This document shows positions 14,169-20,039 of a stretch of 64,000 nucleotides of DNA, piece after piece. Below the pieces are notes generated by a model. The model saw only the letters and a list, made by a program, of their open reading frames with translations. It did no database searches and had not been told where the DNA came from. Where the stretch lies: NCBI RefSeq assembly GCF_016903815.1, contig NZ_CP069973.1; one strand, written 5' to 3'. The position numbers were made by a program, and so were the translations under genes. Source of the DNA: Escherichia coli (lineage in GTDB: Bacteria; Pseudomonadota; Gammaproteobacteria; Enterobacterales; Enterobacteriaceae). Each line of letters opens with the position of its first letter. The stretch's first letter is position 1.

Positions 14169-14711
14169 TCACCGGATGATTGTTGCAATAACCAGTGGCA
14201 TCAGAGACTGAACAGCCGTTTTTAACGCAACGTATTGCTCTGATGTATCAGGCCGGGTAACCCGAAAACACCTTTCCACCCGACATTGTCCGCCCGTATC
14301 CATCCCCCGCCAGGTCTGCTGCAGTAAATCCACCACTTGCGAACATTGTTCATCAACTGTGACACTGGCTCGCGGGTGACAAATACTCGTCTGGCTGAGC
14401 AGCAACAGGCATCGCATTGTTGCTCCTCCATGTTGTTCCCGCAACCAGCGTAATACCACCGGCGATGATGGACTGGTCGTGTGATTACGCTCAGTAATAC
14501 GTTCATAAAAGGAAGTACAGAATGCATGAATCTGTTGCCCGTTGATGTTTCCTTCTGCCGAATGGAGCGTGAAGTGAAATGCCAGCAGACGCGGCCAGTG
14601 GTCCACCCCCTGCTGAACAAAACGCCGGATTTCCCCCGGCGCTGAAAGTAAGGCTTCGGTTATTTGCACTATTTTACCCCTGTGAATTTTGTTAAGCCGG
14701 TGCAGACACAC
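14169..14711 (-). CDS. Inovirus-Gp2/YagK-YfjJ family (Rep-like) protein, degenerate paralogue without the H-U-H motif
   Basis: ..PRLLAFHFTLHS...VLRWLREQHGGATMRCLLLLSQ.. aligns with ..RMDLRFP...YFWCREFGKEKGRKHYHVILLLN.. of ORF 19308..20039. The probable true start is the GTG at 14669 (AGGGGT upstream, TAGTG overlap with the preceding small ORF). Confidence 0.55.
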   Translation of the reverse strand: MCLHRLNKIHRGKIVQITEALLSAPGEIRRFVQQGVDHWPRLLAFHFTLHSAEGNINGQQIHAFCTSFYERITERNHTTSPSSPVVLRWLREQHGGATMRCLLLLSQTSICHPRASVTVDEQCSQVVDLLQQTWRGMDTGGQCRVERCFRVTRPDTSEQYVALKTAVQSLMPLVIATIIR

Positions 14712-14908
14712 GGAAAACGCACATCAACACCAGCACAGTACGATACAAACACCAGTGACTGACGGGACGAAAGGAATAACGAATCAGTCAGGAAAGAGCT
14801 ACAACCTGCTGGCTGACCGGAGAGGGTCAGCAGGAAAATGAACGGTAATGTCGCCAGCACCAGGGACAGAGCTGATTTCCGCAATACCAGCGCCGGCATT
14901 TTGCACAT
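14669..14908 (-). CDS. Possible small membrane protein between the AlpA gene and the Rep-like gene
   Basis: Part of track ORF 14669..14962. From ATG 14908 it reads MCKMPALVLRKSALSLVLATLPFIFLLTLSG... (one clear TM helix). Its TAG overlaps the GTG of the next gene (TAGTG). No obvious SD. Confidence 0.25.
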   Translation of the reverse strand: MCKMPALVLRKSALSLVLATLPFIFLLTLSGQPAGCSSFLTDSLFLSSRQSLVFVSYCAGVDVRFPCVCTGLTKFTGVK

Positions 14909-14936
14909 TGCCAGCGTACCGGCATCACAACTCGTT

Positions 14937-15170
14937 TCATGCTGCTCCTCGTGATTCCTCAATTCGCTGCTGCATCCACTGCTCTACTTCACTTTTGTAC
15001 CAGCGGCTGCTGCGCCCCAGTTTGATGGGTTTAGGGAAATGGCCTTCACTGATCAGCTTGTAAAACCATTTGTCGGTCATACCAGTGAAGCTGGTGATGT
15101 AGTTCATGTCGATCAGGGGATCGTCGGCACGCAGCAATACGCTGTCGTGACCTGTCATTGAGGTCAACAT
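14937..15170 (-). CDS. AlpA-family phage/island transcriptional regulator (excisionase-like HTH)
   Basis: 77-aa ORF ..MNYITSFTGMTDKWFYKLISEGHFPKPIKLGRSSRWYKSEVEQWMQQR.. with the typical AlpA/Xis HTH and W-x3-V/E-x2-W tail. Confidence 0.85.
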   Translation of the reverse strand: MLTSMTGHDSVLLRADDPLIDMNYITSFTGMTDKWFYKLISEGHFPKPIKLGRSSRWYKSEVEQWMQQRIEESRGAA

Positions 15171-15238
15171 GGTCAGAATGTCCTCTGTGAGATTTATGAA
15201 TGTTGGGCAAATGCGGGTGAATCTGCTGAGCTGAGCTT

Positions 15239-15841
15239 TCAGAGCTGGCCTGCTACGGGATACCAGGGATTACCGGCGAGGTAACGGGCTTCCGGATCGC
15301 GCACACCACGACGATCGCGGGCGAAATCACTGAACGCCCATATCAGCTCTTTGAGTCTCTCTTCGCAGTCCGGTGAACAACTGTCCAGCACCACATCCCG
15401 GGTGATCTGCTTCTGGTACGGTGCTGCTTCACCCGGTGATGCGAAGCCCAGTACGTTGCTCCAGGCATCCAGAATCAGCCGATCCAGTTCAGGGCCGTCG
15501 AAATACTCCTGTCTGACGCACAGCACCACGTGGTATTCCGGTTTTTCAGGATGACGTGTCAGGAGCCAGCAGAGGTCACGTCCGGGTGTTGCATTCATCA
15601 GCGCACTGACGGTTTCGATAAAGGCCATACCGAACCAGGTTTTTCTGTCGCTGAAGATGTTGCCATGTTCCCCCGGCAGACGAAGCAGGATCCGCCGTAT
15701 TCGGGAGCAGGACTGCTCGCGCAACACACGGTTGAGAACGCCGATGATTTTGTTCTGATAAGATGGCCAGAAGGGGGCCAGGCTATAGTCGAAATAAGGG
15801 ATAGCATTCATAAGATATGCTCCGTTATGCGCAGCCCACAA
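15239..15841 (-). CDS. Inovirus-Gp2/YagK-YfjJ family (Rep-like) protein, paralogue with a degenerate H-U-H (EYH)
   Basis: ..RIRRILLRLPGEHG...CWLLTRHPEKPEYHVVLCVRQ.. aligns with the other three paralogues. The likely start is the ATG at 15811 (MNAIPYFDY, AACGGAG upstream). Confidence 0.6.
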   Translation of the reverse strand: MWAAHNGAYLMNAIPYFDYSLAPFWPSYQNKIIGVLNRVLREQSCSRIRRILLRLPGEHGNIFSDRKTWFGMAFIETVSALMNATPGRDLCWLLTRHPEKPEYHVVLCVRQEYFDGPELDRLILDAWSNVLGFASPGEAAPYQKQITRDVVLDSCSPDCEERLKELIWAFSDFARDRRGVRDPEARYLAGNPWYPVAGQL

Positions 15842-18179: not shown

Positions 18180-18884
18180 ATGGCAAGATGTACAGCTCCT
18201 GTACGTGGACATAGCTCAGCAGCAGCTGCTGCTGCCTGTCCCGCATGTCGTAATCGCAGTGGTTATCGCCGCAGTAGCTACAGTTATGATAGTTACCCTT
18301 CTTACTCATCAGGCTCTAGCGGTGGCGGAAGTTATGGAGGCAGTAGCGGTGGTTCCAGCAGCAGCGCGAAGCCACGTTGGTCAAAATCAGGGTCTTCCGT
18401 TTCTTACACAACAGCCCAAGTACAATCACTCACACCAATTCGACAAGCGGTAGAGAAACTTGCCATTGAGCAACCTGATCTGCGTGATGTCTTTCTTTGC
18501 CATGCTTGGGATGACCGACAAGGTATTGCCAAAGAGTTACACGATTTGCTCGAAGCGGCAGGTGTCAAAGTATGGTTCAGCGAAAAGGATCTTGCCCTTG
18601 GTGTTCCGATGATGCGTGCCATTGATAAAGGATTAGCAAACTCTCGAATCGGCTTGGTTTTAGTGACACCTGCATTGTTAAACCGTCTTCCTAAAGAAGG
18701 CGTTGCTGATAAAGAACTTTCCGCCTTACTGGCAGGCAACCAACTCGTTCCCATCGTGCATAACACGACGTATGAAGCTCTCCGTAATGTCAGTCCTTTG
18801 CTTGCATCCCGAAGCGGCCTCGACACGGGAGAAGATACATTGGCAGTTGTTGCAACAAAAATTGCAGAGCTGATCACTGTTTAG
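18180..18884 (+). CDS. TIR-domain protein with N-terminal Cys/His knuckle and Ser/Gly/Tyr-rich linker
   Basis: ATG at 18180 with AAGGGGA 8 nt upstream (the track ORF starts at 18129). N-terminus MARCTAPVRGHSSAAAAAACPACRNR. Low-complexity SYSYDSYPSYSSGSSGGGSYGGSSGGSSSS. TIR core DVFLCHAWDDRQGIAKELHDLLEAAGVKVWFSEKDLALGVPMMRAIDKGLANSRIGLVLVTP...DKELSAL. Confidence 0.85.
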   Translation: MARCTAPVRGHSSAAAAAACPACRNRSGYRRSSYSYDSYPSYSSGSSGGGSYGGSSGGSSSSAKPRWSKSGSSVSYTTAQVQSLTPIRQAVEKLAIEQPDLRDVFLCHAWDDRQGIAKELHDLLEAAGVKVWFSEKDLALGVPMMRAIDKGLANSRIGLVLVTPALLNRLPKEGVADKELSALLAGNQLVPIVHNTTYEALRNVSPLLASRSGLDTGEDTLAVVATKIAELITV

Positions 18885-19243
18885 TTTATCCAAGCCACCG
18901 TTAAATATTTCCAGCTCATGAATCTGGTCTGCTATTGCAGGCCAGATATCAGTCAATACTGAAAGGTTTGACCTGCTCCCCGTTGATTAACATAGACTGA
19001 TATAGCAACTTCCGCTTTTGGCACAAAGCAGACCATGAGAAGATAGACGCTATAACATTTGAGTCCTACCAATCGATCTGTTCATTTCCATAAATGGCAG
19101 TAAATGCAAATAACCAGAACAGCCAGGCGCTTTTCGACTTATGGTCGATGTTGCAAAGAGTGAGGAGTGGAAAGCAAGCGTGCGAACGAAAGTAGATGGC
19201 AATCCATTGCATTACTTCAGGACGACTTTTCAGAAAGCGAGCT

Positions 19244-19265
19244 AAGGGCGTCAGCCAACGCCCTT
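19244..19265 (-). terminator. Hairpin downstream of the Rep-like gene 19308..20039
   Basis: AAGGGCGT-CAGCCA-ACGCCCTT, an 8-bp GC-rich stem 43 nt past the stop. The U-tract is weak. Confidence 0.35.
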
Positions 19266-19307
19266 ACCGTGGCATAAGCTCAGGCACCGGATGCCGTTTT
19301 ACAGGGC

Positions 19308-20039
19308 TCACCTGCCATCCAGTAAACGCCCCGGCCCACGACTGCAACCATAATTACGTTGACCAGAACCGTCATGCTGCTTCGTCTCATACTTCACGAG
19401 ATAACAGGCTCTCTCCATGGCTTTCTGCATCGCTTCCACATCACCACGCTTGACCCAGAGCACAGCGGATCCACCAGATTTTTTGTCAGAAGCTTTCCGG
19501 GTATCAGAACATCCACCCGACAAAGGCGTATCATCGGAAGAAGGGCGAGCATCAGATGATGCCGGTTTACGGAAAGGCGTCCGCCTGGAAAAATGAACCA
19601 GTCCATTACCCTGCCAGGGTTCAAGATGCAGAGCGCTACACCATGCCAGCTTGATCAGCGTCGCCAGCGAAGAAGGAACGGTGAAATCCCCTAGCGAGCA
19701 CCAGGTATCTTTGTTGAGCAGTAATATCACGTGATAATGTTTCCTGCCTTTTTCCTTGCCAAACTCCCGACACCAGAAATAACGCAGAGTGGTTGCACGC
19801 ACACGCTTGTTGGCACGTCGTTTATGTCGCTGGTAAGCCTGAATTTTTGCTTTCAGGGATTCGAAAAAACGAGAAATCACCGCTGAATCCGAATCGGGAT
19901 CCATGATGGTGACAGGCATATACTCAGGGAAACGTAAATCCATCCGGATTAACGAGACGACACGGTGTTGCGCCAGGGCACTGTTGAGAATACTTTCAAA
20001 ACGGGATAACCAGTAAGCATTGTGTATTGGTTGATTCAT
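19308..20039 (-). CDS. Inovirus-Gp2/YagK-YfjJ family (Rep-like) protein with intact H-U-H (HYH)
   Basis: 243-aa ORF ..VVSLIRMDLRFPEY...LRYFWCREFGKEKGRKHYHVILLLNKD...ACYLVKYETK... GGAG lies 11 nt upstream of the ATG. Confidence 0.72.
   Translation of the reverse strand: MNQPIHNAYWLSRFESILNSALAQHRVVSLIRMDLRFPEYMPVTIMDPDSDSAVISRFFESLKAKIQAYQRHKRRANKRVRATTLRYFWCREFGKEKGRKHYHVILLLNKDTWCSLGDFTVPSSLATLIKLAWCSALHLEPWQGNGLVHFSRRTPFRKPASSDARPSSDDTPLSGGCSDTRKASDKKSGGSAVLWVKRGDVEAMQKAMERACYLVKYETKQHDGSGQRNYGCSRGPGRLLDGR

Follow-up and report, generated by a model that had tools for sequence, protein, structure and literature searches.

Two candidate nickases and two probable non-catalytic relatives in one conserved backbone of Escherichia coli islands

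Why would an Escherichia coli genomic island keep four Rep-like genes of the YagK/YfjJ type on one strand when only two of them have the catalytic residues of a nickase? The question is posed by a stretch of 64,000 nucleotides (contig NZ_CP069973.1 of assembly GCF_016903815.1; hereafter the window), in which the four genes, called A to D here, lie between positions 14,169 and 20,039. An earlier note on this DNA had proposed that several island backbones accumulated at this place, with some of the genes possibly still able to nick DNA and others decaying. We come to a different answer. The region from 14.2 to 23.5 kb forms a single conserved backbone module in an E. coli island of the CP4-57/CP4-6 type, not a pile-up of islands, and its four genes are best read as deeply diverged HUH-fold paralogues of the YagK/YfjJ family: D of the classic lineage, C of a lineage resembling REP_ORF2-G2P, and A and B apparently non-catalytic. 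The family, its HUH signature and the island context were already annotated before this analysis. What is newly recognized is that putatively active and inactive paralogues stand together in a single conserved backbone, around a cargo slot. A single backbone with C and D as candidate nickases and A and B as their non-catalytic partners is the best overall explanation we can offer, and we put its chances at about even.

All four minus-strand reading frames exist where they were first reported. The starts of A and B probably lie further downstream, judging from the Prokaryotic Genome Annotation Pipeline (PGAP) and from the N-termini of homologues: A would run over 14169-14669 (166 amino acids, aa) rather than 14169-14711 (180 aa), and B over 15239-15811 (190 aa) rather than 15239-15841 (200 aa). 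The four genes are as follows.

14169-14669, minus strand: gene A, 166 aa, start from PGAP and homologue N-termini, Pfam PF27752 'UCP030791'.
15239-15811, minus strand: gene B, 190 aa, annotated 'hypothetical protein'.
16069-16635, minus strand: gene C, 188 aa, a divergent YagK/YfjJ / REP_ORF2-G2P member.
19308-20039, minus strand: gene D, 243 aa, a classic YagK/YfjJ protein ('inovirus Gp2 family').

Which of these proteins belong to the family? D scores 123.5 bits against PF11726 (YagK_YfjJ_C; gathering threshold 25.8 bits) and 36.3 bits against PF23343 (REP_ORF2-G2P; cut-off 27.8 bits). It is 30–31% identical to K-12 YfjJ and YagK over its full length, matches PHROG replication-initiator families and, by tblastn, matches Rep genes of Microviridae over the W-x-x-E...H-U-H region. 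C is barely over the PF11726 threshold (27.9 bits) and slightly under the PF23343 cut-off (24.7 bits). Pairwise BLAST among the four reading frames is significant for the C-termini of C and D only and is otherwise uninformative, and sequence searches of the PDB found no related solved structure. Between its last core strand and the tyrosine helix, D also carries a low-complexity insertion of some 36 aa (residues ~152-190; many of them Ser, Asp, Pro or Lys) that K-12 YfjJ and YagK do not have.

Some matches to D were set aside. A sub-threshold hit to the Rfam family PhotoRC-I inside the gene (19549-19616, minus strand; 24.3 bits, where the gathering score is 45) is almost certainly due to chance, and a match named 'Escherichia phage ECO111 5-P' is an unverified low-coverage 4.5-kb node that provides no evidence of a packaged element. 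In species-representative genomes the search with D returned only two short contigs of metagenome-assembled genomes (L002 and L003, labelled Bacillus sp. / Bacillota). Both carry D homologues at 85–87% identity together with flanking non-coding DNA of E. coli type; the Firmicutes labels most likely reflect contamination or mis-binning.

The residues expected of an HUH nickase divide the four proteins into two pairs.

D: triad H101-Y-H103; tyrosine helix Y213-L-V-K216 (Y213-L-V-K-Y-E); invariant in D, YfjJ, YagK and other members of the lineage.
C: triad H86-A-H88; tyrosine helix Y156-L-A-K159 (Y156-L-A-K-E-E); conserved in the C family.
B: E, C or F and then Y-H at the triad (E-Y-H here); S161-D-F-A at the tyrosine position; first histidine absent in all family members, no tyrosine.
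A: T84-M85-R86-C87 at the triad; S155..P158 at the tyrosine position (hhalign register); HUH and tyrosine both absent.

The motif strings HYH (D), HAH (C) and EYH (B), and the YLVKYE and YLAKEE blocks, are indeed as first read, with two copies intact and two not. For A, which had been read as MRC, it is correct that the triad has no histidine; the register is one residue off, since hhalign puts the triad on T84/M85/R86. A distant A-type protein has G-M-I-M there. When C and D are aligned with their relatives, HUH and Tyr-x-x-Lys fall at positions that are conserved across both families. Of 61 C-family sequences, 57 have H86 and 57 have H88, 52 have Y156 (7 have phenylalanine instead) and 59 have K159. 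We considered whether D might be a two-tyrosine Rep of the phiX174 type, given its Y213-L-V-K-Y217, and rejected the idea: relatives, whether close or distant, do not keep Y217, which makes the D lineage a single-tyrosine type.

Gene B matches nothing in Pfam, NCBIfam, PHROGs or PADLOC, and one of its homologues reaches only E 0.29 with PF11726. An exhaustive phmmer search with B over 1.84 billion representatives gave 40 proteins, made up of a narrow E. coli family and two full-length relatives (36% and 32% identity), and no direct link to YagK. The link comes through an intermediate sequence and through profiles. P0192, which is 36% identical to B by phmmer and 33% by BLAST, scores 41.8 bits against PF11726. 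Moreover, the B family aligns by hhalign over 174 columns (Prob 98%, E 1.5e-13) with a bona fide alignment of seven members (D, YfjJ, YagK and four proteins from other loci) that holds no B relatives. The C family is a poor bridge to B (E 0.1), because it reaches just E 0.015 against D. The AlphaFold2 (AF2) model of B has a pLDDT of 73.7, and its named Foldseek matches are all HUH Reps, 'Inovirus Gp2' among them. Profile and model evidence together would newly assign this 'hypothetical' protein to the YagK/YfjJ family. In the profile comparisons A and B are both nearer to the classic D lineage, from which they would derive, than to that of C.

Gene A is the most distant of the four. Its family is well populated (330 clusters), and the precomputed Pfam matches place PF27752.1 on 120 of 120 A relatives among the matches listed; the label of A itself comes from such precomputed matches, the Pfam set that we scanned lacking the PF27752 model. 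That set, NCBIfam, PHROGs and PADLOC gave A no match and no YagK/YfjJ link, PF11726 reaches no better than E 0.05 with one of 27 A-family members, and hhalign of A against the C family or the B family found nothing. The AF2 model is of low confidence (pLDDT 64), with the same order of secondary-structure elements and generic ferredoxin-like matches only. Such results could mean that A is not a homologue, but a small alpha/beta protein whose hydrophobic strand makes it look like one by chance. The model of A counts against our overall reading too, as does the reliance of the assignment of A on a single kind of evidence, profile-profile comparison.

What argues for homology is the alignment with the classic lineage, which is full-length and co-linear and agrees with the register of the earlier note to within one residue. 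The first hhalign run of the A family against the bona fide alignment gave E 0.004. With a divergent metagenomic A-type protein added (27% identical to A), the result was Prob 64%, E 6.5e-5, score 36.0 and z 9.7; a query that also contained degenerate members gave Prob 91%, E 1.2e-6 and z 17. Scores of 36–46 compare with 12.6–12.7 ± 2.4 for column shuffles, and 0 of 100 shuffles scored as high. In small targeted BLAST searches, the divergent A-type protein, from metagenomic locus L028, also finds D at E 3e-4 and L013b, a degenerate member of PF11726, at E 2.7e-6; A-type genes have B- and C-type neighbours in two settings that are unrelated to each other; and one A homologue is named 'YagK/YfjJ domain-containing protein' in recent PGAP annotation. 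We therefore weigh a chance match as improbable. A is, in our judgement, a probable remote homologue of YagK/YfjJ, a link that is now firmer than before. The single paralogous architecture claimed for the four genes in the earlier note does hold better than chance for every one of them, but with uneven certainty: D is clear, C only just clears its Pfam threshold, B is joined by profile comparison, an intermediate sequence and a structure model, and A is probable.

Are A and B decaying? The evidence says otherwise. Both are intact in every copy examined, and their non-catalytic residues are fixed family-wide, including in relatives at 27–36% identity. Ratios of non-synonymous to synonymous substitution (dN/dS), from comparison of the window with two island copies at 73–93% protein identity, are 0.31–0.40 for A, 0.11–0.25 for B, 0.17–0.19 for C, 0.31 for D and 0.02–0.11 for alpA. 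The values for A and B (0.11–0.40) are similar to those for C and D, and the idea that these genes are decaying does not survive the comparison. A and B look like old, maintained, non-catalytic paralogues under purifying selection. For B, C and D, we are highly confident of this combined picture of homology, motifs and selection.

The second part of the question is whether the genes came together by accumulation. The order two hypothetical genes, ~1.55 kb of non-coding DNA, D, slot, ~1 kb of non-coding DNA, C, B, alpA, A is also found in two chromosomal islands (L024 and L027). The same full order occurs on the conjugative IncI NDM-5 plasmid pNDM5_LS003 (L030, NZ_OP290546.1), at 6300-17600, beside repA. 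Nucleotide synteny between the window and the plasmid copy has a single break, at 17632-19267, the position of the slot. Two short contigs have part of this order, and three further loci have the A-to-C module without D nearby, two of them sharing flanks. Of 5426 complete E. coli genomes, 2988 contain a match to the A-to-C module; in 1299 of the 5426 it is matched at a query coverage of at least 80%, with 87–93% identity and a median of two places per genome.

Parts of this arrangement extend to distant loci. A metagenomic locus (L028, 1992-6164; also L029) contains an AlpA gene, a C-like gene (58%), an SH3-domain gene on the other strand, the gene for the B-like P0192 and an A-like gene (27%, PF27752), after which come DUF2913/DUF2767 genes. 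The trio of C-like, B-like and A-like genes is conserved at this depth, in a different gene order. A CP4-6-like IMG/VR contig (L013, 3743-7176) encodes AlpA, YagM-like and YagL-like proteins, an intact YagK-type protein and, directly after it, a degenerate paralogue that has P-Y-L at the HUH position and still scores 41.9 bits on PF11726. The presence of putatively active and inactive paralogues near AlpA in distant loci leads us to regard the combination as a recurring design.

These observations bear directly on the accumulation of several backbones, in which D (HYH) and C (HAH) would be surviving functional Reps and B (EYH) and A (MRC) decaying ones. In its favour, the island is visibly mosaic, with insertion sequence (IS) elements and truncated type VI secretion system (T6SS) genes at its left; A and B do lack catalytic residues; and the region has copies at a median of 2 places per genome. 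However, other E. coli islands and pNDM5_LS003 have D-slot-C-B-alpA-A as a single unit too, A and B are intact with dN/dS no worse than that of C and D, their substitutions are fixed per family, and the distant metagenomic locus retains A-, B- and C-types together. Accumulation is thus largely refuted and, to us, very improbable. We return to the single backbone, whose other features are these.

14669-14908, minus strand: small open reading frame between alpA and A, 79 aa; other islands have a version of 52 aa or 41 aa, or none.
14937-15170, minus strand: alpA, AlpA-family helix-turn-helix regulator/excisionase-type (PF05930, E 1.9e-10).
15975-16035 (approximate), minus strand: leader-like element of ~60 nt in the C-B spacer, recognized by its likeness to the 5' leader of D.
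16636-17631: AT-rich conserved non-coding region upstream of C, 83–96% identity in other islands.
17632-19267: variable cargo slot between C and D, a synteny break with respect to the plasmid copy.
18180-18884, plus strand: TIR gene of the Thoeris ThsB type inside the slot (PADLOC ThsB model, full length, 424.6 bits).
20040-21595: conserved non-coding region upstream of D, 74–93% identity in other copies.
21683-22522, plus strand: hypothetical gene, member of a convergent pair that travels with the backbone; the pair is 78% identical to the plasmid copy.
22519-23520, minus strand: hypothetical gene, the other member of that pair.

The 79-aa reading frame has no family match in PHROG, PADLOC and family scans and, given its variable length and occasional absence, may not be a real gene. 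Pfam, NCBIfam and PADLOC scans likewise gave no family matches for the two convergent hypothetical genes. The window DNA is that of E. coli, identical at 100% to several human-isolate chromosomes, and sits in a large mosaic island whose end is the kps capsule cluster beside the core gsp/yghD genes. Next to gene A, at 11429-13929 and leftwards, are tssG and tssF pseudogenes (a truncated T6SS baseplate) and IS66/IS3 elements; because these abut A, we consider the left backbone edge to be rearranged in the window. Neighbours of the module include DUF932, antirestriction protein and RadC genes, which are typical of plasmid leading regions. In one of the other islands (L027), a mobI(A/C) gene, an IncA/C mobilization accessory gene, lies at 3665-4051, ~7 kb from the A-to-C module, with Kiwa and type I restriction-modification genes; it hints that some islands with this backbone are plasmid-mobilizable.

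The contents of the slot change from copy to copy: ThsB in the window, a YfjI-family (DUF3987) gene on pNDM5_LS003, and elsewhere H-NS with either an acyltransferase or a restriction endonuclease. No YfjI remnants were found in the slot of the window (17632-19267). Kiwa and dGTPase genes occur near other backbone copies. The ThsB-type TIR protein has a Ser/Gly-rich N-terminal region of low complexity; its gene has non-coding flanks and no ThsA-like gene nearby, and this ThsB may be an orphan or belong to a Thoeris system that is incomplete.

The non-coding DNA upstream of D and of C is conserved about as strongly as the genes. The motifs TGTRTA and AYRCTTAnT alternate in an iteron-like array at 20876-21095, 850–1050 bp upstream of D, which holds 5 of the 6 TGTRTA and 6 of the 8 AYRCTTAnT matches of the 64-kb window and differs in copy number among related islands; from its sequence it could be an origin or a binding array. 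Directly upstream of the D start (~20050-20110) lies a leader element of ~60 nt, which reads TTACCGC..TTAATGATGTGAA..CAACGGAG in the minus-strand sense. It recurs in the C-B spacer (~15975-16035), where CTG replaces the ATG of D, and is either a footprint of the duplication that yielded B or a shared control site or operator. A 21-nt inverted repeat (16647-16667 / 16709-16729; 81% complementary, 41-nt spacer) lies 12–94 nt upstream of C. In promoter and terminator scans, promoter-like sites were rarer than expected and terminator-like sites occurred at about chance level.

What might such a backbone do? In the mechanism that we tentatively propose, at somewhat less than even weight, AlpA-controlled excision of the island would come first. 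C and/or D would then cut a single strand at a site within the AT-rich, conserved non-coding stretches that precede their genes, the iteron-like array upstream of D among them, and form a 5'-phosphotyrosyl link. From this nick the excised circle would replicate in rolling-circle fashion, or single-stranded DNA (ssDNA) would be passed, as by a relaxase, to the conjugation system of a helper. As non-cutting partners, A and B would bind DNA or oligomerize, and position or restrain the nickases. We favour replication or transfer because of the YfjI (DUF3987) association (in the slot on the plasmid copy, and beside yfjJ in K-12), the neighbours resembling plasmid leading regions, the iteron-like array and the place of a Gp2-like gene among the core genes of mobile Pseudomonas islands. 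A bolder form of the idea is that CP4-type islands in general use a heteromeric 'relaxosome/replisome starter', composed of C and/or D as single-tyrosine nickases, the ancient, dead A and B, and AlpA, which would cut in the conserved non-coding DNA upstream of C or D, close to the iteron-like array. Read from sequence as it is, this form is a doubtful prospect.

Two further explanations compete with the nickase mechanism. The first is that the four proteins do not cut DNA in vivo at all, and are domesticated, sequence-specific DNA-binding regulators, acting in AlpA-linked excision control or in H-NS counter-silencing; the HUH and tyrosine of C and D would be retained for metal or DNA binding only. 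The tight linkage to AlpA, the long AT-rich conserved non-coding DNA and the H-NS genes in or near the module would all suit such regulators. Two of the four paralogues clearly work without catalytic residues, and the family is absent from small replicons among the plasmid matches listed. On the other hand, both histidines, the tyrosine and the lysine are strictly conserved in the C family and the D lineage over wide divergence, which is hard to explain without catalysis, and the YfjI association suggests DNA processing. We consider a purely regulatory role unlikely.

The second explanation is a role in defence against mobile elements, in which the HUH proteins would nick or bind invading ssDNA or rolling-circle DNA of ssDNA phages, plasmids or satellites. 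Such a role would account for their position on either side of a hotspot for defence genes. The varying cargo lends it some colour, with ThsB in the slot here, a restriction endonuclease or other genes there elsewhere, and Kiwa and dGTPase close to other copies; moreover, the nearest phage relatives of D are Microviridae Reps. None of A to D, however, matches a PADLOC model, and a constant backbone with varying cargo has the look of a mobile-element core beside a cargo hotspot. A defence function for the four proteins is quite improbable.

Several results weigh against the nickase-plus-partners reading itself, in addition to those given above for A. Folding of the iteron region as ssDNA revealed no excess structure (z -0.08), and no nick-site hairpin was identified. 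PGAP annotation shows no integrase beside the module or next to alpA in the window, so the window copy may be immobile. Among 72,556 plasmid records, D matches 64 and C matches 101, and those among the matches listed are at least ~30 kb in size; this rarity on plasmids argues that the proteins are not typical autonomous rolling-circle initiators. Finally, the literature holds no functional study of YagK/YfjJ that we could find, and no demonstration of nicking, replication or mobilization, in keeping with the earlier remark that the function of the family in E. coli islands is essentially untested.

The module is common (2988 of 5426 genomes) and YagK/YfjJ have no assigned function. Two probably active nickases, as judged by their motifs, and two conserved inactive paralogues are experimental starting points, and the conserved non-coding pieces are candidate substrates for nicking work. 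The variable slot that the module frames carries defence cargo, which bears on how defence genes spread. If the nickase model is true, it helps to explain the movement of pathogenicity and defence islands in enterobacteria. A heteromeric HUH system, if real, would explain post-excision replication or conjugative hitch-hiking of integrase-bearing islands that are considered 'non-mobile'.

How does this backbone compare with known systems? The name 'Gp2' points to gpII of the Ff phages, and the general job of an origin nickase is shared. gpX, a non-nicking product of the gpII gene, modulates gpII, and offers a conceptual parallel to A and B. Unlike gpX, A and B are separate, long-diverged genes and not internal translation products. 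The Pfam matches of M13 gpII are PF05144 (Phage_CRI) and PF05155 (G2P_X_C) only, and it scores below zero bits against the D-like, C-family and combined hidden Markov models, with no detectable similarity to YagK/YfjJ profiles. The connection to gpII drawn in the earlier note thus stands for the family name and the broader REP_ORF2-G2P domain, but fails for M13 gpII itself, which belongs to another Pfam family and lacks profile similarity.

Likeness to the HUH Reps of ssDNA phages (Microviridae VP4/gpA type, PF23343) is seen in the PF23343 scores of D and C, the PHROG and tblastn matches of D and the Foldseek matches of B. In contrast to those Reps, C and D are short (188–243 aa) and lack a fused helicase or any other domain, the genes are chromosomal and outside any phage genome, and the D lineage has one conserved tyrosine. 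With the Rep_trans/MOBT-type relaxases of integrative mobilizable and conjugative elements, the proposed model shares the principle that a rolling-circle-type initiator from an integrated element would process the excised circle; these relaxases are a different protein family, and we claim no membership of it for the window proteins.

The K-12 islands CP4-57 and CP4-6 share both the proteins and the setting. R-x-D-L, W-x-x-E, H-Y-H and Y-[LM]-x-K are invariant between D and their YfjJ and YagK, and AlpA, YfjI, a GTPase, DUF932, an antirestriction gene, RadC and a CbtA/YeeU toxin-antitoxin pair occur in the context. The gene order is not the same: in the window the Rep-like genes are upstream of alpA, with D and C directed away from the block that runs from the GTPase to the toxin-antitoxin pair. 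Two of the window proteins, A and B, lack the catalytic residues, and C forms a separate sub-lineage only just over the Pfam threshold. Where each K-12 island has one copy, the backbone in the window has four diverged paralogues.

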